A stretch of 64,000 nucleotides of DNA from the NCBI GenBank assembly GCA_043228905.1, contig JBHGNT010000015.1:18662001-18726000 (forward strand), read 5' to 3'. Origin of the DNA: Azolla caroliniana. Its lineage: Eukaryota; Plantae; Polypodiophyta. Position 1 is the stretch's first letter. Every line of letters begins with the position of its first letter. Shown in pieces: positions 14,465 to 60,004 of the stretch. The notes beneath the pieces are model-generated. The model was not told the DNA's origin. It saw only the letters and a program-made list of their open reading frames with translations, and made no database searches. Position numbers and translations under genes: made by a program.

Positions 14465-14849
14465 TATCACAGACGAGTGTAATAGAGTATAACTGAGACA
14501 GGAGAGAGAAAAAGAACAAGAACTTGACTTATGATTCCGTAGAATCAAGGTGCACCTGAGTATTTATACAAAAAGGTAGAGATATGGAATGCATGAAGAT
14601 CCATGCAAGCTAGAAATAGAGAATGCATGTATGCAAGCTAGTAAAAGAGAATGCATGTAAGCAAGCAAGGAATAGAGAATGCATGCAAGCCAGGAACTTC
14701 CAATGTTTAATCTACCATACATGAAGTTGGATTTTAATACAAGGATGCATAAATGGATGTAGCTTAGTTAGTAGGGTTGCCCAATGGAAACCAGGAGGTT
14801 TTGGGTTCAATCTCTACCTTCCACCATGGTGTGGCAAATGTCTATGACA
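14465..14849 (-). mobile_element. Solo LTR of a Gypsy/chromovirus-like family inserted in the Copia-2 integrase
   Basis: Minus-strand termini TGTCA...TGATA, TSD CGTGT/CGTGC (14460-14464 / 14850-14854), TATAAATA on the minus strand. It has the same layout as the chromovirus LTRs at 17112 and 48701. Confidence 0.85.
14753..14825 (+). promoter_or_regulatory. tRNA-like sequence with Pol III A/B boxes in the solo LTR U3 (antisense to the element)
   Basis: TGGATG-TAGCTTAGTTAGTAGGGT...GGGTTCAATCTCTAC-CTTCCACCA. It matches canonical TAGCTCAGTTGGTAGAGC at 14/18 and keeps acceptor-like TGGATG/CTTCCA pairing. Confidence 0.7.
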
Positions 14850-17127
14850 CGTGCACACAGATATATGTGGGCCCATGCCTGAACGATCAGTAGGAGGCTC
14901 CCGGGATCTTAGACATCAAAAGATCGTTCCATATACACCCATACAGAATGGAATGGCCAAACGATCCAAGAGAGGGTGACAACAATGCTCCAGCAAACCG
15001 AACTAAAGTTGGACTTCTAGGCTGAACGATCCAAGAGAGGGTGACAACAATGCTCCAGCAAGCTGGACTTCTGGGCTGAAGCATTGCAGACAGTAGTATA
15101 CCTGATCAATCTATCACCGTTGAAAGTGATAAGGCTCGAAGTGCCACACGCACTATGGTCGAGCAAACAGTCAACCTATGATAGGCTCCGTATATTCGGA
15201 TGCAAAGCCTACACATTCATCCTCATAGAGGAAAAGGACCAAGTTGGCACCCCATGCAACTAAATGCATATTTCTTGGTTATGGAACCGATGGGGACTTC
15301 AGCTACCACTTATGGGACCCAGAGAACCGGAAACTAATCTGGAGCAGTGACGTAATCTTCAATGAAGACTCTATTCTCTCTAAGAGGAACTAGCAAAAAA
15401 TAGTTGGTAAAAAGGTATCATTTGAAGTTGACAAAGATGTCGTAGAAGGACTGACCCATCGGGCCGAATCAAAGATTTGACAAACAGTCGAACTCGACCA
15501 AGCCATCAATACACCTGCCAATTCAACCTGCCGACTCTGAATTGGCAAGAGGTCCACTAATTGAAATGGATTCGACGAAGAGATTGACAATATCAATACT
15601 AGCCAACAAAGGCAAAGTTGAACCGACAAGAGTTGAGACAGGCAAAGCCAAGAAGTGCCAAGCCGAAAAGACAGAGTCGATTCGGCTGACACACCAAAAA
15701 AGGCTAAGGGGAAAAGCCGACATGAGTCAGCTAAGACTCCTATCCTCAAGTCAATTGATCCCGAAGCAGGGGAGGATGGCGTAACACCCCTGAACTCCTA
15801 TTACAGGGGCGAGTCATCCAAAAGGACTCGTGACATAAGTGGTTCAACAAATGCCGATCGAACGAGAAAGCCGATTGAAGGATCCGAACCGATCAATACG
15901 ACACTCAGGAGATCCCGACGAGCTCGAAGGTTGACAAAGTTCTATCAATCGGGCCTCGACTACATCAACTACACAGATGCAAGTGAACCAAGCACATACA
16001 AAGAAGCCCCAACACATGGCTACAAGCCATGCAATCCGAGATGGACTCGATTCACTAGAACCAGACATGGGAGTTAATCGAACTACCAGCTGGAAGGAAG
16101 CCACTACCTTGGAAATGGTTCTTTCGGTACAAATATGTCTCTGATTCAGAAAAGCCCAAATACAAAGCTCGGCTCATCGCAAAAGGGTTAAAATGGGAAC
16201 ATGGGGTTGACTACGACAATATTTTCTCCCCAATAGTCAAGATGACCACCCTTTGACTCCTACACGGGGTCGTGGCGATAGAGGACCTAGAGCTTGAGTA
16301 GTTGGACACCAAGACGACATTCCTACACAGAGACTTGGAAGAGGACATTTACACGTCCCAATCGGCAGGCTTCACGACGACGGGGGAGGAAGGTCACCTC
16401 GTATGTTGACAGAAGAAAAGCCTTTATAGCTTAAAACAAGCACCGAGGATGTGGTACCAAAAGTTCAATTTCTACATCCGACAGCTTGGCTACAGTCGGT
16501 CCAACTCTGACCCATGTCTATATACTCGGCAACTGGCCGATGAGTCCCGGATCTATCTTACCCTATATGTCAACGACATGCTGATTGGAGGGAGCAATCA
16601 AGCCAAAATCGAAAAGCTAGAGCGGAGCCTTCACGAAAAGTTCGCGATGAAGGAATTCGGACTAGCCTGACACATATTGGGCATGAGGATCGAGCGAAAT
16701 CAGACAACGAAAACTCTCTGACTCTCCCAGTCCGACTACATCTGAGAGGTGTTGAGCACTTCAATATGAAGAACGCGAAGCTAGCACCAACACCGCTATC
16801 AACGCCGATTCAACTATCAGACATAGACTCTCTTTCAGCGAACGAGGAGAGAGAGCTCGATAGGATGATACCATACGCATCGGTCATAGGAAGTATCATG
16901 TATGTAATGGTGGCGGCCCAACTTGACCTTGCCAATGTCATAGGGGTCGTCAGTCGCTACTTGTCGAACCCAAGATGGAAGCATTGGGAGACTATTAAGG
17001 ACATCTTCAGGTAAGGTAGATGCACAACTAACTTTCGGATCGGCAAACCCGATCGAATTCGAACAATTAGAAGTCGACATCAGGATACATCTTCACCTTT
17101 GGCGATGGCGTTGTCATGATATGGCAA

Positions 17128-17181
17128 GACTCGAACCCATGACCTTAGGTTATATGGGTCGAGCTCTTGACCATTAGATCA
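17128..17181 (-). promoter_or_regulatory. tRNA-like A box / B box in the Gypsy-A 5' LTR (repeated in the 3' LTR)
   Basis: Minus strand A box TGATCTAATGG (17181-17171), 33-nt gap, B box GGTTCGAGTC (17137-17128). Confidence 0.7.
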
Positions 17182-17545
17182 TCTATTGTAATACGTAGGA
17201 TATTATTTTCATTTACATTTTATTATAGGAAATTAGTGTATATTCCAGATTTCTCTGGAACAAGAAGCTTCAGGATTACTCCTGAAAACACTATAAAAGA
17301 GGGCACTAGGCATTATGTTGAACCAAATTGGTTCAACGCTAGTCTTAAGCCTTTTAGCCACCATTATATATTCTCTTCATATAATACATATCTTTCTTAT
17401 CATCACACACACTCTCTCTCGATCTCTCTCTTTCTCTCTGTCTCGCTCACTTCTTCCTTCTCTCGAAGAAGTTCCACACCTCTCATAGTACTAATCCTTC
17501 GTTTAGTACTAATTCCTTCTCTGTCTCAATACTGTTCATGATAGT

Positions 17546-17557
17546 TTGAACCAATTT
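17546..17557 (+). other. Self-priming PBS of Gypsy-A
   Basis: TTGAACCAATTT lies 2 nt after the LTR and is the exact reverse complement of AAATTGGTTCAA (17325-17336), 33 nt downstream of TATAAAA (17292). Confidence 0.8.
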
Positions 17558-17617
17558 TCCCTACCTTCTGTCTCTCTCATTTCCTACTAATCTTTTATTC
17601 CTCTTTTCTTTCATCCC

Positions 17618-18769
17618 ATGGCCACTGTTAGTGCTGCAGAATATCAATCTATTTTCTCGGAATTTCAATGCTTGAAGGAGAAGTTCCATGCTTTGGAACA
17701 AGAAAACCAACGGTTGCTGGGGGATCTTCAACAAATCTCCTTAGAAAATCAGCAAACGCAACAACAACATGGGGAACTTGCGTTACGCGTGCAACAACTC
17801 GAAGCAACCATTGTAGCGATGCAACAACAAGGGCCTGGAACACAAGGGATTCATAAAGAACCCAAGATTGGCCTTCCCATGAAGTTCGATGGAACGCGAT
17901 CGCAGTTTAGAGGGTTCCTTAACCAGGTACGATTAGTTATTCAAATGCATCCTTCCCGATATCCCACCGATGCATCACGAGTGGGTTTAGTAGGCACTTT
18001 GTTAAGTGGCTCTACGTTGTCATGGTTCGCTCCACTATTAGAAAAGGAATCTCCGTTACTCAACAATTTTGAAGAGTTTCTAGGTGAGTTTAAAGCATGT
18101 TTCGGAGATACTGACAGCATCAGGACCGCAATCAACAAAATCCGGCGATTACGCCAAGGTGACCGTCCAGCCTCTACATACGCTACAGATTTTTGCCTAC
18201 TTGCCGTCGATATCCCTTGGGATGATCAAGCGTTGATGGAGCAATTCCGTTATGGTTTACGCAACGACGTCAAGGATTTACTATTGACCTTCCCCGAAGA
18301 GCCAAAGTCCTTAACAGAAGCAATCAGTCGCACGGTGAGATGTGACAACCGCCTCTTTGAGCGACGTTCGGAATGACAACTACAGATGCCGAGGGCAAGA
18401 TCAGAGCCCACCTACGCCTTAGTGGTAGCAAGACCTTTTCCAAGGGAGTCATATAATGCGCCTCCAGCGAATACTCCGACTCCGATGGAGATTGACACTA
18501 CACGTCGTCGAGGGCCATTATCCGAAGAAGAAAAGCAGCGACGTCGTACAAATCGACTATGTCTTTACTGCGGTGGACCAGGACATATCGCAATAAATTG
18601 GCCCCATAGGCCAAGAAGACAGGTAAACCAAATAGTCGCTAGTTCTAATTGTACTAAATCCGAGCCTATTTCAGTAGGGATATCTGATAGTCCTAATAGT
18701 ACTAATATCCCAGATCTAGCAAACAAATTTGATGTCCTTAGTCAGTTAGAAGAAGAGTTAAATGACTAA
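17618..18769 (+). pseudogene. Gypsy-A gag (one internal stop at 18374-18376)
   Basis: PEG10/sushi-like gag (PMKFDGTRSQFRGFLNQ, PMEID, LCLYCGGPGH). ORFs 17618-18376 and 18386-18769 are in the same frame. Confidence 0.9.
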
Positions 18770-21700
18770 GTCCAGCCAAAATAGGAGACGTTTGGTTGGA
18801 CAGCCCTAGATCTGTGCAACCCATTAGTGGTTCCATTCCCTCTAAGCAAGTTAGTGATGTGTTCGTAGCCCAAGTAATAGTTAGTACTAAAAGTACCCCT
18901 CCAGTACATGTCCTAGCACTCCTAGATTCCGGAGCTAACTCTTGCTTTTGGATAAGAAATTTGCTCAAGCTCATAAGATATCCCTAAGAAAACTCCAGTG
19001 TCCAACCTCTGTAGTAGTCATTGATGGACGTCCCATTGCTTCCGGAAATATCATAGAAGAGTCAGAGCCCATTAATATTGTCCTAGATAACTTAGCATGT
19101 GTAGTATCATTTAATATTATTAGTATCCCAGAACATCCTATAGTTTTAGGATTACCGTGGTTCGAGTTACATAACCCAGACATAGATTGGAGAACAAGAG
19201 AAATCCGGTGTCGACAAACCCAAGGGTCAACTCAGAAGATGGCAACCATTTCGCTACGTCAGTTGCGTAAAGAAGGGCGCAAGGAGGAAATGTTCCTCTT
19301 TGCAATATCAATAAACCCCTCCAGCACCACTAAAGAAGAATCCACCGTTCAACTTCCTGAGAAGTATCGTCATTACGCCGATGTGTTCGATAAAGTACAA
19401 GCCAACACACTTCCTCCTCATCGACCGTACGATTGCCCCATCGATTTACAACCGGGAAAAGAGCCGCCATGGGGACCGATCTACAATTTTTCACCAACCG
19501 AGCTGGAAGTCCTTCGGGCCTATATAGAGGAGAATTTGGAAAATGGTTTCATTCGGCATTCGAAATCTCCAGCCGGCGCGCCCATTTTCTTCGTAAAAAA
19601 AAAAGATGGATCGCTTCGTCTCGTTGTAGATTATCGTGGCTTGAATAAGGTTACAATCAGGAATAGGTATGTTCTTCCCCTTATCTCAAGTCTTTTAGAA
19701 CGGATCAATGGTGCCAGGTTCTTCATGAAGATCGACTTACGGGGAGCATATAACCTCGTACGGATCCGACCAAGAGACGAATGGAAGACCGCGTTTCGCA
19801 CCAAATATGGGCACTTCGAGTATACGGTCATGCCGTTCAGCCTCACTAATGCGCCGGCAGTCTTCCAGCACATGGCTAATGATATATTCCGAGATCTATT
19901 GGATGATTGTTTGATCATCTATTTGGATGATCTACTGGTTTATTCAAAGACCCAAGAAGAACATGATTCTCATGTACTATTAGTACTAAAACGACTTCGA
20001 GAACATGCTCTGTATGCAAAGCTGGAAAAATGTAGTTTCGGGTGCAACCAAGTGGAATTTCTCGGCTACATCATTTCGTCAGAAGGCATCTCCATGGACC
20101 CAGCTAAGGTCAAAATGGTGGTAGAATGGCAGACTCCGTGTTCGGTGCGGGATGTGCAATGCTTCTTAGGCTTTGCCAATTTTTACCGGAAGTTCATACA
20201 AGATTACTCAAAGATCCTTCTACATCTCACACAACTTACCAGGAAGGGACAACCGTTCATCTGGTCTGAAGAAACGGATATGGCTTTCGAGATTCTTAAA
20301 AAGGCATTTACATCGGCTCCAATTCTAGCTCATGTCGATCCGGAAAAACCATTCATTATCGAAGCTGACGCATCGGATTTTGCATTGGGGAGCATTCTGT
20401 CACAACAGGGGAATGATGAGAGGCTACATCCTGTGGCTTTTCACTCACGCAAGTTTGACACCGCCGAAATCAACTACGAAATTCATGATAAGGACCTATT
20501 GGCAATAATGGATTCTTTTATGCAATGGAGGCATTTTCTGGAGGGATCCTCTCATCCAGTCACCGTATTTAGTGACCACAAGAATCTTGCCTACTTTCAG
20601 GATGCTCGTGTGTTGAATCGACGTCAAGCTCGGTGGGCCCACTTCCTCACGCGTTTCGACTTCAAAATTACATATCGTCCGGGGAGGCACCAAGGGAAGG
20701 CAGATGCATTATCACGACGTTCGTATCTAGCACCCCGTCCCGGCGAGCTAGCTTTCGATAACAAAAAACAAGTCATATTGGGACTGGCACGACTACAAGC
20801 AACACAGATCTTTGACATGCCTATGGATTCCCGCGTTATCGATACCATACGTGAAGACTTGAAGACAGATGCGTTCGCCCAAGCTATACTAGCACAAATT
20901 GATCCCTCTCGAGCGTCGTGTTCACAGTCGCAACCACCAGGTACGGACTATCGGCAATTCAAATACCATGATGGATTACTCTTCTTTAAAGAACTTTTGT
21001 ATGTTCCTAATGGTTCTTGCCGCCTTCGAGTAGTACAAAACTGTGATGACACATATACAGTTGGGCATTTTGGTAGTACTAAAACATTACATTTAGTACA
21101 ACGAACATTCTGGTGGCCCTGTATGCGACAATTTGTCGAGGATTTTGTTCGGACTTGTAATACATGTTGCAGAGCGAAAATGCCAAGGCATCATCCATAT
21201 GGTTTATTAGAACCATTACCAATTCCAAGCAAGCCGTGGCAATCCATTGCTCTAGACTTCATCACAGATCTTCCAGTCTCTAAGGGGTTCAATGCGATTC
21301 TAACGGTGGTCGATCGATATACGAAGATGGCTCATTTCTTGCCATGTACTAAGGAGATCTCTAGTGAAGACATTGCCGAAATTGTCATGCGTGAAGTATG
21401 TCGGCATCATGGACTTCCCGATAGTATCATCAACGACCGTGGACCCCAGTTCGTGTCAAAATTCTGGAAGCACCTTTTTAACATGCTCAAGGTCACTTGT
21501 AACCTCTCCTCTGGCTACCACCCACAAACCGACGGCCAAGCTGAACGAACAAATCAATCGTTGGAGCAGTATCTGCGGTGCTTTCTCAACTATCATCAAG
21601 ATGACTAGGTAGATATTCTCCACTTTGCCGAATTTGTCTATAACAACTCTATCCACGCATCCACTAAAGTTATGCCATTTTATGCTTATACGGGATGTCA

Positions 21701-22277
21701 CCCCCAGTGGAGTGTACTTGAAACCCCAGAGGTGTCCACAAATCCGTGCGCGGAGGATCGTTTGGAGCAGTTACACAAGATACAAGCGGATTTATCTACT
21801 CACCTCCAACAAGCTCAACAAACACACAAGGTCTACGCGGATCGTCATCGACTTCCATCCAATTTTAATATTGGAGATCGGGTGTGGCTGCTACGACGAC
21901 ACATCAAGACTACTCGTCCATGTGAGAAGTTAGATTATCGGCGATTAGGTCCTTTCCATATTATTGGACAGATTAATGATGTCGCTTTTCGTCTCGATCT
22001 ACCTCCTCAACTTCGGATACATCCGGTGTTTCATAGTTCTCTCCTCGAACCCTACCACAAGAGCACCATCCCAGGACGTCTTATCCAACCTCCACCCCCG
22101 ATCGAGCTTGAAGATGGGCCGGAGTACGAGGTTGCCGCCATCCTTGATTCCAAGATTGTTCGCAACAAGCTCTACTATCTAGTCGATTGGCTAGGCTATA
22201 GCCCCATCGAACGTACTTGGGAACCGATCGAGAATGTGACCAATGCTCGTGCTCTTCTTGAAGACTTCCATTGTTAA
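18757..22277 (+). pseudogene. Gypsy-A pol (PR-RT-RH-INT-CHD), disrupted
   Basis: LLDSGA protease, YLDD RT, EADASD RNase H, INDRGPQF / HPQTDGQAER integrase, GPF motif, chromodomain EYEVAAILD...VDWLGY. Frameshift near 18950 and stop at 21606. Confidence 0.93.
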
Positions 22278-22639
22278 TATCCACACAAACCAGGTCCTCA
22301 ATCCAAGACGACTCGTGACACTCGTCGTTTTAAAGGGGGGATAGTGTCATGATATGGCAAGACTCGAACCCATGACCTTAGGTTATATGGGTCGAGCTCT
22401 TGACCATTAGATCATCTATTGTAATACGTAGGATATTATTTTCATTTACATTTTATTATAGGAAATTAGTGTATATTCCAGATTTCTCTAGAACATTCTA
22501 GAAGCTTCAGGATTACTCCTGAAAACACTATAAAAGAGGGCACTAGGCATTATGTTGAACCAAATTGGTTCAACGCTAGTCTTAAGCCTTTTAGCCACCA
22601 TTGTATATTCTCTTCATATAATACATATCTTTCTTATCA

Positions 22640-22764
<125 letters not shown>

Positions 22765-23769
22765 GCTCACTTCTTCCTTCTCTCGAAGAAGTTCCACACC
22801 TCTCATAGTACTAATCCTTCGTTTAGTACTAATTCCTTCTCTGTCTCAGTACTGTTCATGACAGGCGCCATATCATGGAGGTCAAAGCTGCAAGACTACA
22901 CAGCCTTGTCTACCACAAAGGCTTAGTACATAGCAACATTAGAGGCAACAAAGGAAGCAATCTGGTTGCACCAACTGTCAGCCGACTTCAACGACAAGTC
23001 AAATCGACCAACATCCAACGCTGACCAATTACTGCGATTCACAAAGCACAATACACATCATCAATAATCTTGTCTATCATGCAAAGACAAAGGATATTGA
23101 GGTGTGGTATCATCACATCCGGGAGCTAATAACAGAAAAGAAGCTCAAAGTCCGAAAGATCGACATCGAGGCGAACATTGTAGATTGCATGACGAAGCCA
23201 CTCCAAGAACAACGCTTTGAAGCACTAAGGACAAAGATGGGACTACGACAAGTGATCGAACCAAAGAGTGTCGAGCATGGAGCAGAAGGAAAGTCGATCC
23301 GAACGATTCCGACAAACCGAACCAAATGACCAACCGAATGAGGTTAGATACTGATCTCACCTTTGCCGACTTGGCCATATGCCGACTGACATGTAATTAC
23401 AACTTTAGATTTGCAATCTAGGTTTACGGGGGAGATAACCCCAAATAACTTGTATACGTAGGAAAGAGTAGTCCTTTTATGGGGGAGTTTGTTGGCATAA
23501 AAGGCTGACTCTTTCCACTTTGTATCTTAGTGTGAACACGTCCAAATAGTTAGGACTTAGTATATAAGCTTTAGCCTAACATTGTAACATCATCTTCTTG
23601 TATCTTGAGTCTCTAAGAGAGTGTAAGAGTTACAAAATAACGAGTGCTTCCATTAGAGCTTTGAATTGTGTCTATGTTTCCATCTATCTCTTTTGTCATA
23701 TTCTCTGTGCTGTTCTACAAGTCCTCACGTACTTCCGCATACATATTGAACGCCAAAGCCAACACACAA

Positions 23770-24255
23770 TGCTAGCTTCTTCAATGCCTTCTTGCTTCTT
23801 TATTAGAATACATCAATGCATAAACCAATAGTCAACATCATTGGCTAATGGTAGTGCTATTGAAAAACTTTGAAATCCCATCTCCCAAACACACATAACA
23901 TATCGACTTGGTACCTCGAGTTATTCTATGTATCTCCAAATATGGTCATAAGACGTCATATTAAAAGCTTTCATGAAGTGTACCAAACACCATAGCAATT
24001 TATCCTTCAAATGACTTTATTGTATCAACACTTAAGAATGACAAGTTGATCAATGGTGCTATGGTGTTTTTAAAAACTAGCTATTCGTAAGGCCTCTTAC
24101 CATTATTTTCAACCCAAGCACTTAATTTTGATTCTACATCCAATTAGCTTTGTCGTAAGAGAGCCAACCATGTTTTTTCAAAAGTTATACACATTATTTA
24201 TATCTCCCCCTTCATATAAAGGTTTGTGCCAATTTGTACTCCAATCACGGGGCAT
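23770..24255 (-). pseudogene. Degenerate RTE-like LINE reverse transcriptase (host of Copia-2)
   Basis: Minus-strand peptides PRDWSTNWHKPLYEGGDINN, MVGSLTTKLIGC, AWVENNGKRPY, HHSTIDQLV, CLVHFMKAFN...IWRYIE*LEVP and GLCID occur in non-LTR RT order. Confidence 0.75.
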
Positions 24256-27200: not shown

Positions 27201-27690
27201 AAAGTGTTGGATCCAAGGAATCATTCGACAACTGTACCAGAAGTAATAGTTTCGATCAACTATTTGAGAACTACATTCAAATTGTTATTTGAAATACACA
27301 ATGTTCAATGACTTATTAGACAACTCATAAAAAAAAACCACAAGAAGCGTGTTGTTTGACGAATCAAGAATCGATAGTTATGAAACATCATTTGACAACC
27401 AATAAAAGAGAAACTCTATGTTAACTGGTGAAATTTAACGAGTTATTCCACAATTGATAGGAAAGCATCGAGATTCGATGAGTTAGTCGATAACAAATTA
27501 AAGGGCAAGAGCATTGGAGAGGTTATATTGACCAATTGAAAAAAGTGTTGGATTGATTAGGTAATATTTGTACTATCGGTTAAAACGCGACCGATGGGGA
27601 AAACTTGGGGAGAATCATCACTTTTGACAAAGTTATAAGGCCAATTGAAAAGCACAAAATCTAACAAGTTCGTCCAAAACACTTGCTCAA

Positions 27691-28349
27691 CAATTCATCG
27701 AAGAGCACCGAATATGACGAAATCATCTCACAGCTGATCGAAAGCCAAGCATAAGCAATCCATCGAAGAGTATAAAATCCGATGAAATCATCTCATAGTT
27801 GATCGGAAAGCCAAGCAGTAAAGCAAACAATCCATCGAAGAGCATCGAATCTTAACAAAATCCGTTTGATAGAACCAAAAGCAAGTCGGGCAATTTAAGA
27901 CAAACGGTCGAGGAGCAACGGGTGGGCGCGGTCGGTCCAGTCCAACCAACAATTATTATTCAAGCATGATGGCAGACCAGCAAAATTCATTCGACAGAAC
28001 CGAAAGGAAGCCGAACAATTTAAGACGATCGGTCAAGGAGCAACGGGTGGGTGTGGTCGGTTCAACCGACAATTATTATTCAAGCGTGATGGCATACCAA
28101 CAAAATTCGTTTGACAGAACCGAAAGGAAGCCGAGCAATTTAAGATTATCGGTCGAGGAGCAACGGGTGGGTGTGGTTGGGTTCAACCAACAATTATTAA
28201 TCAAGCATGATGGTAGACCAACAAAATCCGTTCGACAGAACTGAAAGGAAGGCCGAGCAAATTAAGATGAATGGTCGAGGAGCAACGACTGGGCTGGGTG
28301 CGGTCGGTCGAACCAACAATTATTATTCAAGCATGATTGCGGACCAACA
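27691..28349. repeat. Tandem repeats upstream of the PMT gene: ~65-72 bp x2.5, then ~120 bp x4
   Basis: CAATCCATCGAAGAG units at 27691-27855. The 120-bp units start at ~27856, 27981, 28101 and 28221. Confidence 0.9.
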
Positions 28350-28537
28350 ATAGACGGTAGAATGGGTTTGTCCGAGCGGATTTCAGGCCTTGGGGGGGGG
28401 GGGGAATGAGACGAGAAGAAGGAAAGGGTGGTGGTTATCTGGTGGCAACAAGAAGAGAGATTGGCCAGGAGGATGGGTCTCGTGGAACTGCCACCAGCAC
28501 GACCCATTTGAGGATGGACGGGCGAGGACGGCCTGTT

Positions 28538-28571
28538 GTCCATCTTTTGTCCGGCCGGACAAAAGATGGAC
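28538..28571. repeat. Perfect 34-bp palindrome
   Basis: GTCCATCTTTTGTCCGG|CCGGACAAAAGATGGAC. Confidence 0.95.
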
Positions 28572-41961: not shown

Positions 41962-41969
41962 CCTGTCTT

Positions 41970-44991: not shown

Positions 44992-45007
44992 ATACATACA
45001 TACATAC

Positions 45008-45190
45008 GCTTGTGTCTATTTGCTACCAAATAATAAAGAGACTTAGTGAGGGAATTGATTGCGGGCACGAATGTTGCAAGGTGCGTTTTTGAGGGTGCGT
45101 GCGATCTGCACCTTTAGATCTTTATTCGAATAAAGCACACCATCAAATAATTTGTTTTTTTGGAGCCCGAATAGCCTGACCGTTTGAATT
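45008..45190 (+). repeat. Third copy of the same TIR, back-to-back with the element end
   Basis: TGTCTATTTGCTACCAAATAATAAAGAG..GAGGGAAT aligns with 42431 onward. It is separated from the previous TIR by (ATAC)4. Confidence 0.65.
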
Positions 45191-45209
45191 TGAGTTACCC
45201 ATCTCTAAT

Positions 45210-48600: not shown

Positions 48601-48700
48601 TGCCCACACCTTTCTTGTCGGGTCGTCAAAAAATGTGATGAAGTAGGAGGCGCTGCCGAGAGACTGATGTGGCATTGGGTCACACACGTCCGAATGGACC
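45656..48700 (-). mobile_element. Ty1/Copia remnant (Copia-3): integrase-RT-RNase H, PPT and short 3' LTR; cut at 48700 by Gypsy-B
   Basis: Minus strand VHSDVC, KYKARLIA, FALKYLG, KHIDVRYHFVRD. PPT GGGGGAG at 45781-45787, LTR ~45656-45780 (TG..CA). Confidence 0.85.
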
Positions 48701-48978
48701 TATCATGAAAACATGACCATTATGGCGTCACCTGAATTTGAACCTCGAACCTTGTAATCCATAATTGAAAACCTCAACCATTAAGATAACTTATTGTCAT
48801 ATGAGAGGATAAAAGCTACTTTTCATATTAGATTGATTATTGTAAAAACTCTAGATCATTCTAGAATGTCCTAGAACATTCTAGAAATCTCTAAGTTATT
48901 CTATAGGAACCTATAAATAAGGGCATACATGTATTCTCAAATCAATTCAAATCAACACCAATCTTTAGCTCTCATTAC

Positions 48979-49224
48979 ATATCTTGTATCCATTCTCTTT
49001 CTTTCTCTATCTTAATACACCTATTCTTCTCTTAGCATTTCGTTTCTTCTCGTGTTCCCTTATATCCTTCTTCCATCACTCTATCTTTCATTCTTGGTTT
49101 TATATCTTGTATCCATTCTCTTTCTTTCTCTATCTTAATACACCTATTCTTCTCTTAGCATTTCGTTTCTTCTCGTGTTCCCTTATATCCTTCTTCCATC
49201 ACTCTATCTTTCATTCTTGGTTTT
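48979..49224. repeat. Exact 123-bp tandem duplication in the Gypsy-B 5' LTR
   Basis: 48979-49101 = 49102-49224. Confidence 0.95.
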
Positions 49225-49230
49225 GATAGT

Positions 49231-49242
49231 TTGATTTGAATT
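49231..49242 (+). other. Self-priming PBS of Gypsy-B
   Basis: TTGATTTGAATT lies 2 nt after the LTR and is the exact reverse complement of AATTCAAATCAA (48944-48955), 32 nt downstream of TATAAATA (48912). Confidence 0.8.
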
Positions 49243-52217
49243 CCCGCCCCCCTTGTAACCATCACGAAACCATGGCCGCCATTAATTCAGAAGAATATCT
49301 CACCCTTGTTGCAGAAATGGAGAATCTTAAATCCTAGTTCACATCTGTTGAAGTAGAGAATCAACGTCTACTTGGGGATCTACAAAATGTTACTATACAG
49401 AAGCAACAACAACAAGAGGAGTTCATGTGATGGGTTCAACAGTTAGAGTCGACAATCGTAGTGTTACAACAACAAAGGGTCGAAGGTCATGGACTTATCA
49501 AGGAGCTAAATTTGATGGTTTGAGGGCGCATTTCCGAGGTTTCTTGAATCAAGTACAGTTGATTCAAATGCATCCCACATGTTATCTGACAGATGCATCG
49601 CGAGTCGAGTTAGTGGGTACCTTATTGATTGGCATAACATTGTCGTGGTTTGTTCCATTGCTAGAGACAAATTCTCCTCTACTTCAGAATAATTTAGAGG
49701 AATTTATCAAAGAATTTAAGGCTTGTTTTGGAGATACTGATGGGGCGAGAACAACTATCAACAAGATTCGTACACTTCGTCAAGATGATCACCCAACTTT
49801 GACATATGCAACCAATTTCCGTCTCATCGCAAGCGATATTCCTTGGGATGAACAAGCCCTAATGGAGCAATTCCGTTTAGGCCTTCGTATTGATGTCAAA
49901 GACTTACTTCTTACCTTCCCCGAGGATCCAAGGTCATTTACAAAAGCTATTGGTCGAGCAATATAGTGTGATAATCGCCTTTTTGAGCGTCGATGTGAGC
50001 AACAACAACAAATAACAAGATCAAGATTCACACCAACTTATGCATCAGTAACAGTGCAATCATCCCCAAGGCAAACATATAGCCCTGCTCCAACTCCAAG
50101 GCAAACACGTAGTCCAGTGCCAATGGATAGTCCTACACCCATGGAGATTGATATCACTCAACGACGAGGACTGTTGTCGGACAAAGAGAAGCAATGACGA
50201 CGAGCAAACCATCTGTGCTTATATTGCGGAGGTCCAAGACATATAGCCATTCATTGCTCCCGTAGGCCGAGACGTCAGGTAAATAAAATTCATTATGACA
50301 ATAAAAATGAGTCCAACAATTTAGAAGTAGTTAGTGAATCTAATATTATGAATAATCCACCCTTGTCCAATAAGTTTGAAGTCCTAAGCCAATTAGAAGA
50401 GGAGTCAAACGAATAAGTTCGGCCAAAATAGGAGCCATTTGGTTGGACAACCCTAGATATGTACAACCTAGTGTGGGTTCCATTTCTTCCAAGCATGTTA
50501 GTAGAGTCTTCTTAGCCCACGTACAAGTTAGGACACCGAGTTGTCAATTTCAAGTCCAAGCCCTCTTAGATACTAGAGCCAATTCTTGTTTCATGGATAG
50601 AGATTTTGCCCGAAAACACCAAATATCCTTGCATACACTTCCTTGTCCAGTTTCCGTAGTAGTGATTGATGGACATCCCATAGCTTTCGGGAAGATATTC
50701 GAAGAGTCTGCTCCAATACACACACTCTTAGGTGATTTAGGATGTGTAGTTTCATTTAACATAATCCGTAGTCCTGAGCATCCAATTGTCCTCGGTTTGC
50801 CATGGTTCGAGCTACATAACCCTAGAATCGATCGGAGGAAGTGAGAAATTTGGTGCCCTTCAGCAAAAAATATCATTGCCAAGGATCGAACTCAGGATTA
50901 TTCTCTTGAAGAATATAGTTCTACCAATGCACCATCTCCTTTCCATCAAATTTCAGCCATCACATTGCAATAATTGCACCAAGTGGGAGGCAAGGAGGAC
51001 CTTTTCTTATTTGCAGTACCAATGACACCTTCTAGTGCCATTCAAGGGAATTCAGACATCCAAATTCCCAAAAAATATCAAGACTGTGTTGATGTTTTCG
51101 CCAAAGTCAAAGCTAGTGTTCTTCCAAAGCATCGGTCGTACGACTATCATATTGATCTCCAACTAAGAAAAGAGCCACCGTGGGGTCTGATTTGCAATTT
51201 ATCACCCATTGAGCTTGAGGTTCTTCGAGAATACATCGAGGAAAATCTTGCACATGGGTTTATTCGACATTCAAAGTCTCCAGCTGGTGCCCCTATCTTT
51301 TTTGTGAAGAAAAAGGACTGCTCCCTTCGTTTGGTTGTGGACTATCGAGGCTTAAATAGAGTCACCATAAGGAATAGGTTTGCTCTACCTTTAATCTCCA
51401 GTCTCTTAGAACGCATTGGTGGGGCAAAGCATTTTACTAAAATTGATCTAAGGGGTGCATATAATCTTATTCGAATTTGACCGGGAGATGAGTGGAAAAT
51501 TGCATTTCGTACTCGGTATGGTCATTTCGAGTATACAGTCATGCCTTTCGGGCTCACAAATGCACCCGCAGTATTTCAACATATGGCAAATGACATTTTC
51601 CGGGATTTCTTGGATATCCTTCTCATCATCTACCTAGATGATCTATTGATTTACACTAAAACACAAGAGGAGCATGATATACATGTGCTGAAAGTACTTG
51701 AACGCCTAGAAAGTATTGTCTTTATGCCAAACTTGAGAAATGCAGTTTTGATTGCAAACAAGTCGAATTTTTGGGATACACTATTTCTGTTGAAAAACAG
51801 TGCTCGGCCACAACCGAGGAATGGGGTCAACTCACAGAAAAACAGGAAATAGAAAATGCACAAAACAATAGAGAGAAAGGTACACTGGATGTTTTACGTG
51901 GAAAACCCTAAATGGGAAAAACCACGGGAGTCCTCAACCTCCAACTATCACTATGAACAGGGATGTACAATGGTGAAGCTACAAGGCAACAACCTTGAGC
52001 TCACTGTCTTCGCCACAGGCGGCGGTAATACACAGAGGCAACGACCTCTTCGTCTCTCTCTCTCTCTCTCTCTCTCGGCTGTTCTCACTTCGCATACGAA
52101 TGAGCAACAACAGTAAAACTGTTTGCCCTAAGTCATATTTATACACATATGACTTTCGGGCTATTTACAAATATAGCCTCAAGGGCTCTTGGCAAACATA
52201 TTCACAAATATGTCCCC

Positions 52218-52620
52218 GCATCCGGATCTCTCTCCGGGTACATTCGTCATCCGTCTCCGTAACCGGGGTCTTCATCATCCGGATCCGTATCCGGGTACTC
52301 GTCATCCGGCTTCATGCCGGGTACTCTTCATCATCCGGATCCGCATCCGGGTACTCGTCATCCGGCTTCATGCCGGGTACTCTTCATCATCCGGATCCGT
52401 AGCCAGGGTCTTCGTCATCCGGCTCCGTAGCCAGGGTCTTCGTCATCCGGCTCCGTAACCGGGGTCTTCAGCATCCGGCTCCGTAGCCAGGGTCTTCGTC
52501 ATCCGGCTCCGTAACCGGGGTCTTCAGCATCCGGCTCCGTAGCCAGGGTCTTCGTCATCCGGCTCCATGCCGGGTACTCTTCATCATCCGGTTCCGTAAC
52601 CGCAACCGGGCTTGCCGTCA
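52218..52620. repeat. 27-28-bp tandem array in Copia-4 LTR U3 (also ~57212-57640)
   Basis: About 14 units of TCTTCGTCATCCGGCTCCGTAGCCAGGG and variants. Confidence 0.95.
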
Positions 52621-52673
52621 TTCATCTCCGGACATCCCATCCGGAGGGACCGTAATCCCAACAAACTCCCCCT

Positions 52674-55600
52674 TCACTTCGGCATGGGATGTCTCTCCAA
52701 TCCGATCCTCTTCCGGCATGCTTCCAGCTTGTCGGGTGTGAGCACCTTGGTCAGCATATCCGACCCGTTCTCGTCCGTGTGGACCTTCGTCAGCACGAAC
52801 TCCTTGTCTTCTATCCTTTCCCGGATCCAGTGGTATCTACACTGGATGTGCTTCGTCCGGGAGTGATAGGCCGCGTTCTTCGCAAGGTGGATGGCACTCT
52901 GACTGTCGCAGTAGAGTCGGTATTCCTCCTGCCGGATACCGAGCTCTCTAATGAAGTCCTTCATCCATATTATTTCCTTGCCGGCTTCAACAACCGCCAT
53001 GTACTCCGCCTCCGTGGTTGACAGCGCAACCGTCTTCTGCAGCCTCGACTGCCATGAAACAGCTCCCCCTGCATACGTCATCACATACCCTGATGTGGAC
53101 CGGCTGGTATCTGCATCAGCCGACATATCCGAATCGGTAAAGCCGTCGAGTTCGGGCTTTCCGGAGCCGAATCGGAGGCACACGTTTGTCGTGCCCTTCA
53201 GGTATCGGAGTATCCACTTGGCCGCGTTCCAATGCTCTTTGCCGGGATTGCTCATGTACCGGCTCACCACTCCGACTGCATATCCGATGTCCGGTCTCGT
53301 ACACACCATGGCGTACATCAAGCTCCCGACGGCTGAGGCATACGGCACTTTCATCATATCCTCCTTTTCAGCCTTTGTCTTGGGACTTTGCTTGCTGGAC
53401 AGCTTGCAGTTTGTCGGGAGGGTCGATCCGACCGGTCTTGCTTCCGACATGTTGAACCGTTTAAGCACCTTTGTCACGTACTTTTCCTGTGATAGCCACA
53501 ACTGCTTCTTGCTCCGGTTCCGGATGATGTGCATCCCTAGTATTTGTCTCGCCGGACCCAAGTCCTTCATTGAGAAGGTTCGGTGAAGAGCCTTCTTCAG
53601 CATCCGTATCTTGACCTGGTCCCGTCCGACGATCAACATGTCGTCCACGTACAGGAGGAGTATTAGAAAGTCTCCTCCTTCGAATTTCTTCACAAACACG
53701 CAGTGGTCAGACTGCGTTTTGAGGTACCCTTCGTCGGTCATGAAGGAGTCGAACTTCCGGTACCATTGCCGGGGAGCCTGCTTCAGTCCGTAAAGGCTCT
53801 TCTTCAACCGGCATACCAGGTGCTCCTTCCCTTTCTTCTCGAATCCTTCCGGTTGCTGCATGTAGATCTCTTCTTCGAGGTCACCGTGAAGGAATGCCGT
53901 CTTCACGTCCATCTGTTCTACCTCGAGGTCCATGCTTGCCGCTATGCTCAGCACCGTCCGGATGGAGGTCATCTTCACTACCGGGGCAAATATCTCGTCG
54001 AAGTCGACGCCCTTCTTCTGCTGGAACCCCTTCACCACGATCCTGGCTTTGTATCTCGGGGGGTTTCCGGCATCTCCCGGTTTCAGCTTGAACACCCACT
54101 TGTTTCGAAGTGCCCGCTTTCCTTTCGGCAACTCCACAAGTTCATATGTGTGGTTCTCATGCAGGGAATCCATCTCCTCCTGCATGGCACTTAACCACCT
54201 GCGGCTATGGGTGTCAAGCTTTGCTTCTTCAAAACTCTCCGGCTCCCCCTTGTCGGTTAGCAGCACGTGCTCTGGTTCCGGAAATCTCCGGGGGGCCCTT
54301 CTCTCTCTTAGAGGATATCTCCGTTCCGGAGCTTCGGTAACCGGCTCCTCCGTTTCCTCTTCATCCGAATCCATTTCGGGATCGGGGCCGGTTCCGGTAT
54401 CATTTTCATCTTCTTCTTCGGCCGGTTCTGTTTCTTCACCGTCTTCGGCCGGATCCTCGAGTGCTAACCGGTCCCTTGCCGGTCGGGACTGCTCCTCGTA
54501 GAGTTTATCCTCACCGGTCGACTTGGAGCTCTTCATCTTCTTCTCCGACTCCCAGTCGGCGAGTGTCTTGTCCTGCATGAAGATGATATCTCGACTCCTG
54601 AATATCTTCTTGTCGACCGGGTCCCATACTCGGTAGCCGAACTCGTCGTCACCGTAACCGAGGAATATGCATGGCCGGGTCTTTGGGTCTAGCTTTCCTC
54701 TCCGGTCCTTTGCCACATGCACATATGCGAGACACCCGAACACCTTCAGATGCCGGTAGGATACTTCCCTACCGGTCCACACTCTCTGCGGCGTGTCTCC
54801 GTCCAAAGGTACTGAGGGTGATCGGTTTATCACATATGTCGTCGTCGACATTGCCTCAGCCCAAAACCCCTTGGGTAATTTCGCATGCGCCAGCATACTC
54901 CGAACCCTCTCCATTATGGTCCGGTTCATCCTCTCGGCCAGCCCGTTCAGTTCCGGCGTCTTCGGCACAGTAAACTCGAGCCGGATTCCCTTCGAGCGAC
55001 AGTACTCCTGGAACTGCCCCCGGTATTCCCCTCCGTTATCCGCTCGTATCGCTTTCAGCTTCTTGCCGGATTCTCTTTCCACTCTCGCGTGGAGTTCTTT
55101 GAAGACGGACAACACTTGGTCCTTTGTCTTCAACGGTGCCGTCCACAGCTTCCGGCTGTGATCATCAATGAATGTCACGAAGTACTGGGCTCCGCCATGT
55201 GACTTCGTTTCTACCTGACACACATCAGTGTGTAACAACTCCAATGGTGCACTACGTCTCGTCGGTGGCCTTGAGTGGAAGGAGGTCCGGTTTTGCTTAC
55301 CGGCCAGGCAGTCGGTGCACTTCTCCAGGTGCACATGCTTCACTGGAATAAGGTTGTCTTCTGCAAGCCTCTTCATCCCCTTCTCACTCATGTGGCACAG
55401 TCTCTTGTGCCATAGCTCACCGGCAGTGTCAGCTGCCACGTTCAGCTCCTCCGGACATAGCCGGGAATTCATCAGGTACAGTGTGTTGACCTTCCGGGCC
55501 CGAGCCACTATCAGGCTCCCTTTGCTGAACTTCATGACACCGTTCCGGATGCTGCCCGTGTAGCCTTCATCGTCTAGCCTCCCGGCCGAGATCAGGTTCA

Positions 55601-56750
55601 ATCGGACCTCCGGAACGTGTCGAACATCCTTCAGCAGCATCTTGCATCCGGTTGATGTCATCAGCCACACGTCTCCTATGCCGGCAATCCGGCATGTACC
55701 TTCATTTCCCATCCGGACACAGCCATGCTCACCGGCTGTGTAGGATGAGAAGTATTTCTTCTCCGGGGTCAGGTGGAACGACGCTCCGGAATCGACCACC
55801 CAGGTCATCTCATCGCCGGCAAGGTTCAGCTCCCTCTCTTCGGTAATGAGCATGATTTCTTCCTCACTTGCCACGAGTGCCGTCGTTCCTTTCCGGTCCT
55901 GCCCTCGCCGATCCGGACCTCTCCGGTCCGTGGCTCCCCGGTATGCACCGTTTCTCTCCGGTGACTTCTTCGAATCGGTGTCGTCGGCTCCGTTGTCCTT
56001 TCGGTAATGCCGACAATTCTTCCGGAAGTGCCCCGGCTTCCCATAGTGGAAGCATGTGGGTCTTCCTCTTGACTGCGACCGGGTCCCCGACTTCTCCCGT
56101 CTTTGCGGACTCCGGTTCCATTGTCTTCCCCGTTCCGATTCGGTAAGCAGCGCCTTTGAGTCGGAGACCGGTTCTTTATCTCTCCGACGCGCTTCTTCGT
56201 TCAAAATACTTGTCTTTACCGTTTGTAGGGACAAGTTATCTTCCGTGCAGGAGGTGCTGAGAGTCACCACCAAGTTCTCCCAGCTTTCCGGCAATGTACA
56301 CATCAGGATGATGGCTTGCATTGCATCCTCCAACGGGAACTTGATCGCCGCAAGCTGGTTCACGAATCCCATGAATGTGCTTACGTGTTCCACCATACTC
56401 TCGCCGTCACGGTACTTGAGGTTCACTATCTTTCTCATCAGGGAGGTCCGGTTCAACGCATTCTTCCTCTCGTAGAGGCCTGACAGCTTCCTCCACATCT
56501 CATATGCGTTGGTGTCGTTCGCCACGTGTTGTAGAACGCTCACGTCGACGTATTGCCGAATGGTTGCAACGGCTTTCCGGTTCAGAAGCCTCCACTCCGT
56601 CTCAAGTACCCCCTTGGGTATTTCCGACCTGTCGATCGGTTCATACAGGTCCCGAACAATGAGCAGATCCTCCATCTTTATCTTCCAGTCGGCGTAGTTC
56701 TGCGCGTTCAGCACCATCATGCCCGGAGGCCCACTACCGCCGCCTTCCAT
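52674..56750 (-). CDS. Copia-4 gag-pol polyprotein, 1358 aa, uninterrupted
   Basis: First ATG after the PBS is at 56750. Gag, WVVDSGAS, WHKRLCH..CTDC, D-D-E integrase (HTDVC, RADNGGEY, NGLAER), YVDD, RNase H FTDSD. Confidence 0.95.
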   Translation of the reverse strand: MEGGGSGPPGMMVLNAQNYADWKIKMEDLLIVRDLYEPIDRSEIPKGVLETEWRLLNRKAVATIRQYVDVSVLQHVANDTNAYEMWRKLSGLYERKNALNRTSLMRKIVNLKYRDGESMVEHVSTFMGFVNQLAAIKFPLEDAMQAIILMCTLPESWENLVVTLSTSCTEDNLSLQTVKTSILNEEARRRDKEPVSDSKALLTESERGRQWNRSPQRREKSGTRSQSRGRPTCFHYGKPGHFRKNCRHYRKDNGADDTDSKKSPERNGAYRGATDRRGPDRRGQDRKGTTALVASEEEIMLITEERELNLAGDEMTWVVDSGASFHLTPEKKYFSSYTAGEHGCVRMGNEGTCRIAGIGDVWLMTSTGCKMLLKDVRHVPEVRLNLISAGRLDDEGYTGSIRNGVMKFSKGSLIVARARKVNTLYLMNSRLCPEELNVAADTAGELWHKRLCHMSEKGMKRLAEDNLIPVKHVHLEKCTDCLAGKQNRTSFHSRPPTRRSAPLELLHTDVCQVETKSHGGAQYFVTFIDDHSRKLWTAPLKTKDQVLSVFKELHARVERESGKKLKAIRADNGGEYRGQFQEYCRSKGIRLEFTVPKTPELNGLAERMNRTIMERVRSMLAHAKLPKGFWAEAMSTTTYVINRSPSVPLDGDTPQRVWTGREVSYRHLKVFGCLAYVHVAKDRRGKLDPKTRPCIFLGYGDDEFGYRVWDPVDKKIFRSRDIIFMQDKTLADWESEKKMKSSKSTGEDKLYEEQSRPARDRLALEDPAEDGEETEPAEEEDENDTGTGPDPEMDSDEEETEEPVTEAPERRYPLRERRAPRRFPEPEHVLLTDKGEPESFEEAKLDTHSRRWLSAMQEEMDSLHENHTYELVELPKGKRALRNKWVFKLKPGDAGNPPRYKARIVVKGFQQKKGVDFDEIFAPVVKMTSIRTVLSIAASMDLEVEQMDVKTAFLHGDLEEEIYMQQPEGFEKKGKEHLVCRLKKSLYGLKQAPRQWYRKFDSFMTDEGYLKTQSDHCVFVKKFEGGDFLILLLYVDDMLIVGRDQVKIRMLKKALHRTFSMKDLGPARQILGMHIIRNRSKKQLWLSQEKYVTKVLKRFNMSEARPVGSTLPTNCKLSSKQSPKTKAEKEDMMKVPYASAVGSLMYAMVCTRPDIGYAVGVVSRYMSNPGKEHWNAAKWILRYLKGTTNVCLRFGSGKPELDGFTDSDMSADADTSRSTSGYVMTYAGGAVSWQSRLQKTVALSTTEAEYMAVVEAGKEIIWMKDFIRELGIRQEEYRLYCDSQSAIHLAKNAAYHSRTKHIQCRYHWIRERIEDKEFVLTKVHTDENGSDMLTKVLTPDKLEACRKRIGLERHPMPK

Positions 56751-59700
56751 TTTCTGTGTTACCGTCGCTCTGATACCAATTTGTTGAAAAACAGTGCTCG
56801 GCCACAACCGAGGAATGGGGTCAACTCACAGAAAAACAGGAAATAGAAAATGCACAAAACAATAGAGAGAAAGGTACACTGGATGTTTTACGTGGAAAAC
56901 CCTAAATGGGAAAAACCACGGGAGTCCTCAACCTCCAACTATCACTATGAACAGGGATGTACAATGGTGAAGCTACAAGGCAACAACCTTGAGCTCACTG
57001 TCTTCGCCACAGGCGGCGGTAATACACAGAGGCAACGACCTCTTCGTCTCTCTCTCTCTCTCTCTCTCTCGGCTGTTCTCACTTCGCATACGAATGAGCA
57101 ACAACAGTAAAACTGTTTGCCCTAAGTCATATTTATACACATATGACTTTCGGGCTATTTACAAATATAGCCTCAAGGGCTCTTGGCAAACATATTCACA
57201 AATATGTCCCCGCATCCGGATCTCTCTCCGGGTACATTCGTCATCCGTCTCCGTAACCGGGGTCTTCATCATCCGGATCCGTATCCGGGTACTCGTCATC
57301 CGGCTTCATGCCGGGTACTCTTCATCATCCGGATCCGCATCCGGGTACTCGTCATCCGGCTTCATGCCGGGTACTCTTCATCATCCGGATCCGTAGCCAG
57401 GGTCTTCGTCATCCGGCTCCGTAGCCAGGGTCTTCGTCATCCGGCTCCGTAACCGGGGTCTTCAGCATCCGGCTCCGTAGCCAGGGTCTTCGTCATCCGG
57501 CTCCATGCCGGGGTCTTCGTCATCCGGCTCCGTAACCGGGGTCTTCAGCATCCGGCTCCGTAGCCAGGGTCTTCGTCATCCGGCTCCATGCCGGGTACTC
57601 TTCATCATCCGGTTCCGTAACCGCAACCGGGCTTGCCGTCATTCATCTCCGGACATCCCATCCGGAGGGACCGTAATCCCAACAATTTCATCCAAGGGTA
57701 TTTTCATGGATCTGGCAAAAGTCCAAACAATATTGGAATGGAAACCCCCATGCTCATTTCGGGACGTCTAGTGTTTCCTTGGATTTGCGAACTTCTATCG
57801 CAAATTCATACGTAATTATTCAAGCATTGTGTTGCCCCTCACCCAACTCACCAAGAAAAATCAAGCATTTTTTTGGAGTAACGAAGCGGACAAGGCTTTT
57901 ACTCAGCTGAAAGAGGCATTCACATAAGCACCTATCCTAGTGTGTATTGATTCTTAAAAGTCATTTACTATTGAGGCGGATGCGTCAGACTTTGCATTGG
58001 GGAGTATCCTATTGCAACCAGGCAAGGATGGGCAGACTCATCCAGTCGCGTTTCACTCGAGAAAATTTACTGTTTCGGAGATAAACTATGAGGTGCGGTC
58101 GACTCATTCGAGCAATGGCGTCATTTTCTAGAAGGATTGCCTCATCAGATTATCATTTATAGTGAGATTCACAAAAATCTCACATATTTTCAAACAACTC
58201 GAGTATTAAATAGAAGACAAGCTCGGTGGGCCCAATTTCTAACGCGTTTCGATTTCAAGATCATTTTTCTCCCTAGAAAACAACAAGGGAAAGTAGATGC
58301 TTTGTTTGGGCGTTCGTATCTAGCTCTTCGACCTAGAGATCTGGCCTTTGACAATCAAAAGCAGATTCTCCTCGGGCCATCAAAGCTATAGGCAACAACA
58401 ATTTATGCCACGCCACTTGATTCTAGCCTTCTTGACACTATTCGGCAACAACTTCACTCTGATGATTTCGCTAAGGATGGCTTAGCCCACATTGGTTCAA
58501 GTTGTCCATGTTGTTCCACATTGCAAGGGACATCTCAACATTATCAGGACTTCAAGTGGCAAGATGGCTTACTCGTCTACAAGAATCTCCTTTACGTCCC
58601 TGATGAATCACCCCAACTTCAAGTGTTAGAACATTGTCATGATGCCCCCATGGCTGGACATTTTGGTATTGCAAAGAACATTGAGCTGGTGAAACGTTCG
58701 TTTTGGTGGCCTCATGTGCAAAAATTTGTCGAAGATTTTGTTCGCACATGTGACACCTACTGCCGCGCCAAAATACCTAGGCATCATCCTTATGGCTTAT
58801 TACAACCATTACCACCTCCCAACAAGCCATGGCAGTCTATTTCTATGGATTTCATTACTGATCTACCACCTTCGAAAGGCTTTGATAGTATTTTAACAGT
58901 AGTGGATCGGTTCACAAAGATGGCACATTTTGTACCGTTGGTAAAGACCATTAGTAGTGAAGAAACTGCAAATCTCATTATGCGTGAGGTGTTTCACCAT
59001 CATGATCTCCCAAATGATATTATTAGCGACCGAGGTCCTCAATTTATCTCACACTTTTGGAAGCACCTATGGGTAGGCCTCAAAATCTCCTGCAAACTCT
59101 CTTCGGCTTATCATCCACAAACTAACAGACAAACAAAGCGCACAAATCAAACACTCGAGCAGTATCTTCTATGCTTCATCAGTTATCAACAAGATGATTG
59201 GAGCAATATTTTACATCTTGCCGAGTTTGCATACAACAACACGGTACACTCTTCTACCAAAGTTACACCTTTCTTTGCTTACACTAGCAACCACCCTCAA
59301 TGGTGTATCCTGGATCTCCTTGAGGTGTCACGAAACCCTAGAGAGGCACATCACCTCCACCAACTACAACAAATCCAGTTTGAGTTATCTTCACATCTTC
59401 AAAAAATGCAAGCATACCATAAGACCAATGTCGATCGGCCTCGTCTTAAGTCTCCTTTTAAGGTTGCTAACCGAGTATGGTTGCTTCGTCATCACATCAA
59501 GACTACCCGCACGTGTGCTAAGATCGATTATCAACGCTTAGGTCCTTTTGTCATCATAGCGCGGATTAATGATGCAACATTTCACCTTAACCTTCCTGCA
59601 CATATATGGCTTCACCCAGTCTTTCATAGCTCTCTTTTGGAACCTTGCTACACCTCTTTAATTCCTAATCGTGTCGTACCACCACCGCCTTTTGTCCAAC

Positions 59701-59949
59701 TGGTTGATGGCCCCGAATACGAGGTAGCTGCTATTCTCGACTCTAAGATTGTGTGCAATAAGCTTTATTATCTAGTTGATTGGCTTGGCTATCCTCTGAG
59801 TGATCGCACTTGGGAACCTGTCGATAACATTTGTAATGCTCAAGCTCTTGTCGACGACTTCCATCGCCACTATCCAAACAAACCTGGCCCTACAATGTTA
59901 AAACCAACTTTCACTCGGCATTCTCGAAGGAGGGATTATGGTGTCACCC

Positions 59950-60004
59950 GGACTTGAACCTCGAACCTTGTAATCTATAATTGAGAACCTCAACCATTAA
60001 GATA
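59950..60004 (-). promoter_or_regulatory. tRNA-like A box / B box in the Gypsy-B LTR (also ~48734-48788)
   Basis: Minus strand A box TATCTTAATGG (60004-59994), 33-nt gap, B box GGTTCAAGTCC (59960-59950). Confidence 0.7.

Follow-up and report, generated by a model that had tools for sequence, protein, structure and literature searches.

The closest described systems are TRIMs whose LTRs carry a Pol III promoter. Cassandra and Ajax hold such a promoter within the LTR, as do the elements analysed here, but differ from them in that it is 5S-derived and of type 1, in a non-autonomous element, and drives the element's own RNA (PMC10886601). The comparison with Cassandra made in the original prediction stands for the presence of a Pol III promoter in the LTR, whereas the closer match is the tRNA-type Helenus (PMC10886601): Helenus TRIMs and TRIMp3 have, like the elements here, tRNA-derived LTR sequence with conserved A and B boxes that is unlikely to be a functional tRNA. 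In its available part the same paper, Kojima 2024 (PMC10886601), mentions that among Repbase LTRs 'not a few' contain part of a tRNA, without describing them there, excludes LTRs longer than 1 kb, and anticipates no sharing of LTR sequence of this kind with autonomous partners. The Tcn1 clade of chromoviruses (Tf1/sushi group) shares with the elements reported here a caged chromodomain, self-priming, a PPT, a 5-bp TSD, a non-seed plant host and fungal relatives (PMC2864245, PMC6317226); self-priming has been predicted for Tcn1 itself (PMC6317226).

Three LTR families (solo, Gypsy-A and Gypsy-B) in the window, which is the whole stretch of Azolla caroliniana DNA that was analysed (64,000 nucleotides), carry close to their U3 tip a short tRNA-like sequence, here called the head, directed outward and antisense to the element (Table 1). 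The original prediction of antisense A and B boxes near the U3 tip of three families was confirmed in 5/5 LTR copies, and the distance from A-box start to B-box start was 44 nt in all five heads (gap 32-33 nt). The head of the Gypsy-A 5' LTR lies 16 nt from the LTR tip. The predicted copy in the 3' LTR of Gypsy-B is present, in an LTR whose true tip and most of whose body (beyond about 60030) have been deleted. The LTRs had been described as barely alignable, and indeed the three families were mutually unalignable except for one 16-nt match. The solo LTR, flanked by the TSD CGTGT/CGTGC, lies in a copia integrase gene and is related to two loci from the metagenome survey described below (blastn E 3.6e-14 against L065, 5e-12 against L066). 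It sits within one and the same copia element as Gypsy-A, whose gag and pol are broken by stops in the window copy; the host of Gypsy-B is a different copia. The three window insertions (3/3: solo LTR, Gypsy-A, Gypsy-B) are thus inside other retrotransposons, in copia coding DNA. Other features of the window were: a young copia (51788-57685, minus strand) that interrupts the RT of Gypsy-B, with an unbroken 1383-aa ORF, LTRs holding 28-bp tandem repeats and a relative at 62045-64000; nested inverted repeats, MITE-like, at 61194-61933; a 120-bp tandem array upstream of a methyltransferase gene (27815-28350); and a PPR protein of 1196 aa in a single frame, with an E motif (5545-9135, minus strand).

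Table 1 Heads, elements and promoter features in the window.
Feature	Positions	Strand	Details
Solo LTR, 385 bp	14465..14849	-	Tcn1-like family related to L065/L066
Solo LTR head, antisense to element	14753..14825	+	A box from 14760, AGGTT, B box from 14804
Gypsy-A chromovirus	17112..22863	+	gag, PR, RT, RH, INT, SH3, chromodomain
Gypsy-A LTRs	17112-17543 and 22345-22863	+	TSD GGCGT/GGCGC
Gypsy-A 5' LTR head	17128..17181	-	T8 at 17181, AGGTC 17145-17141, B box 17137-17128
Gypsy-A Pol II promoter	17292..17337	+	TATA 17292-17298, predicted start region holding self-primer 17325-17336
Gypsy-A self-priming PBS	17544..17557	+	12-nt complement of 17325-17336
Gypsy-A chromodomain	22125..22274	+	Pfam PF00385 and alignment; aromatic cage Y, W, Y
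Gypsy-A 3' LTR head	22361..22414	-	Identical to 5' copy
Gypsy-A heat-shock-element array	22491..22508	+	Four GAA/TTC units between head and TATA
Gypsy-B 5' LTR	48701..49228	+	Self-priming PBS next; insertion in copia integrase gene
Gypsy-B 5' LTR head	48734..48788	-	A box, AGGTT, B box; 34 nt from tip
Gypsy-B 3' LTR head	59950..60004	-	Box scan

The textbook consensus is TRGYNNARY(N)GG for the A box and GGTTCRANNCC for the B box. When the whole window was scanned on both strands with these boxes, allowing at most 2 mismatches, 7 matches were obtained: the five heads, a GGTTC microsatellite (45237) and one match in copia (14260); the copia LTRs of the window gave none. Programs that look for complete tRNAs gave far less. 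ARAGORN called 0 tRNAs over the window, its relaxed setting (-ps80) was discarded as noise (246 calls), and Rfam found no tRNA over the whole window; the tRNA model RF00005 matched positions 1-71 of the solo copy with 12.2 bits (E 8.1, threshold 29) and did not match the Gypsy-A head. Under this model the likeness to a tRNA is clearer in the solo LTR's family: matched along its full length, the model gave L066 27.8 bits (E 2.6e-4), under the same threshold. This family also retains the acceptor stem (5/7 pairs in the window copy, 7/7 in L066), an exception to the predicted pattern of conserved boxes and decayed stems, which otherwise held across the 25 distinct heads described below. The head as a functional tRNA gene was rejected (no intact cloverleaf, 0 ARAGORN calls, Rfam below 29, stems at chance). 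Since single copies are weak as tRNAs, the case for a tRNA rests on comparison across copies. A second antisense A/B-box-like stretch, with a spacing of 42, was observed at 50882-50934 (minus strand) and in L006 (2941-3010, minus strand), in the lengthened protease-RT linker of the Gypsy-B sublineage; the L006 copy was called a tRNA by relaxed ARAGORN (-ps90), and the stretch could be a chance match or a second capture.

Relatives were collected from metagenome loci matched via an alignment of the SH3-chromodomain region; they were picked for their protein, with no regard to the motif. The 77 loci come from the best 80 of 560 confirmed matches, are biased to Gypsy-A and belong mostly to one series of assemblies; no relatives were retrieved among viral contigs. 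Nine loci with less than 200 nt past the chromodomain were dropped, and the remaining 68 were scanned over the 330 nt that follow the chromodomain. The antisense A/B motif was found in 27/68 loci at up to 2 mismatches and in 36/68 at up to 3, compared with 0/68 and 3/68 on the sense strand of the same region, 0 and 0 (two strands, at most 2 mismatches) and 0 and 2 (at most 3) of 68 in coding DNA, and 0 and 0, and 0 and 3, of 53 further downstream. Dinucleotide shuffles, the control by which the prediction was to be judged, gave the motif in 1/2040 cases at up to 2 mismatches and in 1.5% at up to 3. The start-to-start spacing was 43-44 in 36/36 motif loci, so that the intronless-tRNA spacing originally noted (B box 32-33 nt after the A box) holds beyond the window as class-I spacing; the distance also fits a type 2 Pol III promoter, with boxes 30-60 bp apart. 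Among these relatives, 11-65 nt separate the end of the B box from the LTR tip. To judge from this comparison, the heads are derived from tRNA; the parent may have resembled tRNA-Arg for the large lineage and tRNA-Ala for the solo family. One locus, L073, lacks an A box but has kept AGGTT and a B box 12 nt from the tip, resembling a yeast ETC site. Two intact tRNA genes (Asn and Thr) were seen about 100 nt from a truncated chromovirus in L018 (552-627, plus strand; 831-906, minus strand); they were discarded as a sign of insertion targeting, the element that they flank being truncated, with no insertion end there.

The head is concentrated in two lineages. At up to 3 mismatches it was borne by 29/33 loci of the first, 7/14 of the second (36/47 combined) and 0/21 of the others, and AGGTY plus B box alone occurred in 27/33, 10/14 and 2/21, respectively. 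Within one lineage the head is absent from L042, L043 and L050; the remaining failures within the two lineages are, by eye, mostly decayed copies. A tree of 928 pol columns gave full support to each lineage and placed head-less rows between them; when outgroups were included, a chytrid protein also separated the two, and the AU test rejected their union with p 0.0004 (LG+G4, for a group defined after viewing the tree). When heads were compared between lineages, identity was 0.88 for box positions; the anticodon arm gave 0.28 and, like the acceptor arm, was at chance. With non-box identity between lineages at chance, the heads of the two lineages may equally be due to repeated capture, LTR exchange or an ancient origin followed by losses, whether by common origin or convergence. 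The most tRNA-like head (acceptor 7/7, 27.8 bits) belongs to a family formed by L065, L066, L035 (186, plus strand) and the solo LTR of the window. At non-box positions it is only 0.26 alike to the heads of the close pol relatives L059 and L064, and likely represents a replacement by a fresher tRNA piece.

To analyse what is conserved, 41 heads were assembled (36 that passed the scan, L070 and L074 added by hand, and 3 from the window); thinning them to less than 80% identity to each other (mean 46%) left 25. On the A-box side, T8 was found in 24, A14 in 23, G18 in 22 and G19 in 25 of these; on the B-box side, G53, T54, T55 and A58 in 25 each, C56 in 24 and C61 in 21, while position 59 is free (all four letters occur) and positions 49-50 vary. 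Conservation of the boxes is partly circular, since heads were chosen by their boxes. The non-circular evidence is provided by positions 44-47, CpG decay and the variants of the Gypsy-A family. Positions 44-48 played no part in choosing heads, and there we found A44 in 24/25, G45 in 23/25, G46 in 25/25, T47 in 25/25 and a pyrimidine at 48 in 25/25; in the yeast structure a winged helix of TFIIIC touches +47, and TFIIIC binding or transcription is affected when +44 to +47 are changed (PMC11724288). When heads were anchored on 44-54 only, the B-box CpG was CG in 12, CA in 7 and TG in 1 of 20 distinct heads (two chance matches in L042 removed), which is suggestive of decay to a tolerated CA, with about four independent CA origins. 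Among variants above 3% in four DNA runs of the Gypsy-A family, 0 of the 40 listed (of 48) fall in the B box or AGGTC; they hit instead positions 9-12 and the anticodon arm.

Pairing in the same 25 heads gave a different picture. Watson-Crick pairs were at chance in the acceptor stem (49/175, 28%, against 44.8 when permuted), the anticodon stem (33/125, 26%, against 37.3) and the T stem (50/125, 40%, against 47.2); the D stem had 43/100 against 33.9 (p 0.015, uncorrected for kinship), driven by pair 11-24, which is paired in 24/25 heads with T-A/C-G exchange, a hint of constraint at the RNA level. The prediction that the boxes are kept preferentially over the surrounding head was thus borne out, near-invariant boxes standing against acceptor and anticodon arms at chance. 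This pattern is, as read from the aligned heads, that of a DNA site recognised by protein rather than that of a folded RNA, and the head itself appears as a real, selected, lineage-wide feature.

The elements that carry it are, as predicted, autonomous and chromodomain-bearing (gag-pol with chromodomain). Gypsy-A has the Gypsy domain order and a C-terminal chromodomain with an aromatic cage, as in Tcn1-like chromoviruses, the three cage positions being assigned by homology with HP1; the RT-RH-INT tree was built without a named Tcn1 reference, and a chytrid protein nests among its rows. Priming is by the element itself: the PBS complement, about 33 nt below the TATA, is 10-12 nt long and covaries with the PBS in 15/17 cases, with heads present or absent, which ruled out the head as a tRNA primer site. 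The predicted RNA start region (17317-17337; also L022, L023 and L026) forms a near-perfect palindrome overlapping the self-primer and containing a sense B-box-like word; this palindrome could compete with PBS pairing. The order of U3 is: tip, outward head, AT-rich spacer, mostly a heat-shock-element (HSE) array, and TATA, the latter 113-207 nt inward of T8 in loci with a canonical TATA. The HSE pattern, made of GAA/TTC units, is a consensus. Its triplets were found in 28/43 loci of the two head-bearing lineages and 0/20 others, some families having G-box-like words in place of the HSE. In the Gypsy-A 5' LTR the array is damaged by a deletion; the 5' LTR of Gypsy-B has an HSE array at 48859-48886, a TATA near 48912 and an internal 123-bp duplication. 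The AT content upstream of the A box is 0.60-0.97. Around the heads, neither a Pol III terminator nor a CAA or TATA-like motif was conserved in position, and a T4 run is within reach in 15/25 heads at a varied distance (1-70 nt), which weakens the reading that a discrete RNA is made. Depth on the head was below 3 in polyA RNA of a related species (strandedness unverified), too low to be informative.

We give about an even chance to the proposal that this outward TFIIIC/TFIIIB site works as a portable chromatin barrier and as an open-chromatin seed for the element's own Pol II promoter. Host TFIIIC would bind the extended B box of the head, the retained A box would position TFIIIB on the AT-rich spacer within U3, and the TFIIIC/TFIIIB complex would bound or open the chromatin between the flank and the stress-responsive Pol II promoter. 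We infer that what is selected is the recognition of DNA by TFIIIC, and that this selection, being at the level of the family, benefits element replication. The A box adds little TFIIIC affinity, its role being the placing of tauA (PMC11724288), and its retention despite this small gain points to recruitment of TFIIIB; the location of the head between the flanking chromatin and the HSE/TATA block favours a barrier, as does the lodging of all three window insertions within other retrotransposons. Barriers made by tDNA are established in yeast, but those at TFIIIC sites are undescribed in plants according to the available part of a 2026 review (PMC13578239), and in Arabidopsis methylation silences clusters of tDNA (PMC7544208), both of which weaken the barrier reading. 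It is weakened as well by the amplification without a head of the 21/21 loci outside the two lineages and of L042, L043 and L050, and by the hint of RNA-level constraint at pair 11-24.

A broader and tentative proposal, which we hold to be possible rather than probable, is that chromoviruses which home to heterochromatin in non-seed plants took up tRNA promoters on two or more occasions and exchanged them on one or more. The captured promoter would be a built-in TFIIIC insulator that keeps a heat-inducible LTR promoter usable in silent chromatin, an anti-silencing device drawn from the Pol III machinery of the host; it would also be the first barrier of the tDNA type in plants, scattered in very many copies. 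If true, this proposal accounts for the expression of elements that read heterochromatin marks after landing there, autonomous LTRs recruit Pol III factors for a purpose besides making their own RNA, and such genomes contain many additional TFIIIC sites and false tRNA calls. The LTR families with and without the head, decayed and intact and in varied chromatin, constitute a natural high-copy test set for plant barriers.

Other explanations have to be weighed against a barrier. It is unlikely, in our judgement, that the head is a working Pol III promoter whose RNA product matters, with the 3' LTR reading antisense into the PPT and the end of pol (self-limiting small RNAs or interference) and the 5' LTR reading into the flank: the retained A box with exact class-I spacing, the AT-rich upstream sequence and the weak covariation at pair 11-24 agree with such a promoter, but the T4 terminator, CAA and TATA-like motif have no fixed place, the stems are at chance, and self-silencing would cost the element. 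The sense U3 copy in the genomic RNA might alternatively pair with the D and T arms of a tRNA and capture host tRNA for dimerisation or packaging. The antisense orientation in U3 is that of the Ty3 bipartite PBS, where U3 is likewise complementary to tRNA D and T arms; Ty3, however, is tRNA-primed and pairs with one tRNA, whereas the elements here self-prime and vary at the free B-box positions (PMC5371799). Self-priming in 15/17 cases, the four letters taken by position 59, the variation at 49-50 within the would-be duplex and the fact that pairing needs no fixed D-to-T spacing make tRNA capture quite improbable.

We find similarly little probability in a TFIIIC/TFIIIB site that serves integration or nuclear positioning, as a landing pad for elements that target tRNA genes or as a cDNA tether. 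Loose ends were not piled up upstream of the A box among 24 listed of 222, the Gypsy-B break 19 nt upstream is a deletion, and the three window insertions lie in copia coding DNA, away from tRNA genes. The poorest prospects are those of a chance motif or of a neutral relic left by some old insertion of a tRNA or SINE. Single copies scoring under the Rfam threshold and the loss of the head in some families are what a relic might look like, but this explanation is already largely refuted by the near-invariance of the boxes and of 44-47 across pol proteins that are 52-70% identical, with flanking head positions at chance, and by a motif enrichment specific to strand and place.

The expectation that such a head is not a described feature of autonomous plant chromoviruses agrees with the literature searched, which gave no description: no paper in which LTRs of autonomous chromoviruses bear an outward tRNA promoter was found by title and start of abstract, most subscription papers being outside reach. 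The head seems to be a variation on the design of a tRNA promoter in an LTR, whose antisense, U3-tip form in coding elements appears undescribed. Plant and fungal Helenus elements have the 5-bp TSD seen here, but they are non-coding, 311-1263 bp long and tRNA-primed, compared with a self-primed gag-pol element of 5.7 kb with a chromodomain; the tRNA part of Helenus-1_SMo and three bivalve LTRs is in sense and mid-LTR, whereas here it is antisense and at the U3 tip, and the Helenus promoter is proposed to make the genomic RNA, a task for which the elements here have a separate TATA promoter (PMC10886601). A tRNA-like U3 head is unmentioned in the available parts of the Tcn1 clade descriptions (PMC2864245, PMC6317226), and 21 related loci lack it. 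As for boundaries, yeast tDNA/TFIIIC barriers are likewise set by A and B boxes but are host genes (PMC13578239), and the mouse B2 SINE boundary is a mobile A/B-box element that acts via CTCF, outside autonomous LTRs (PMC8136502).
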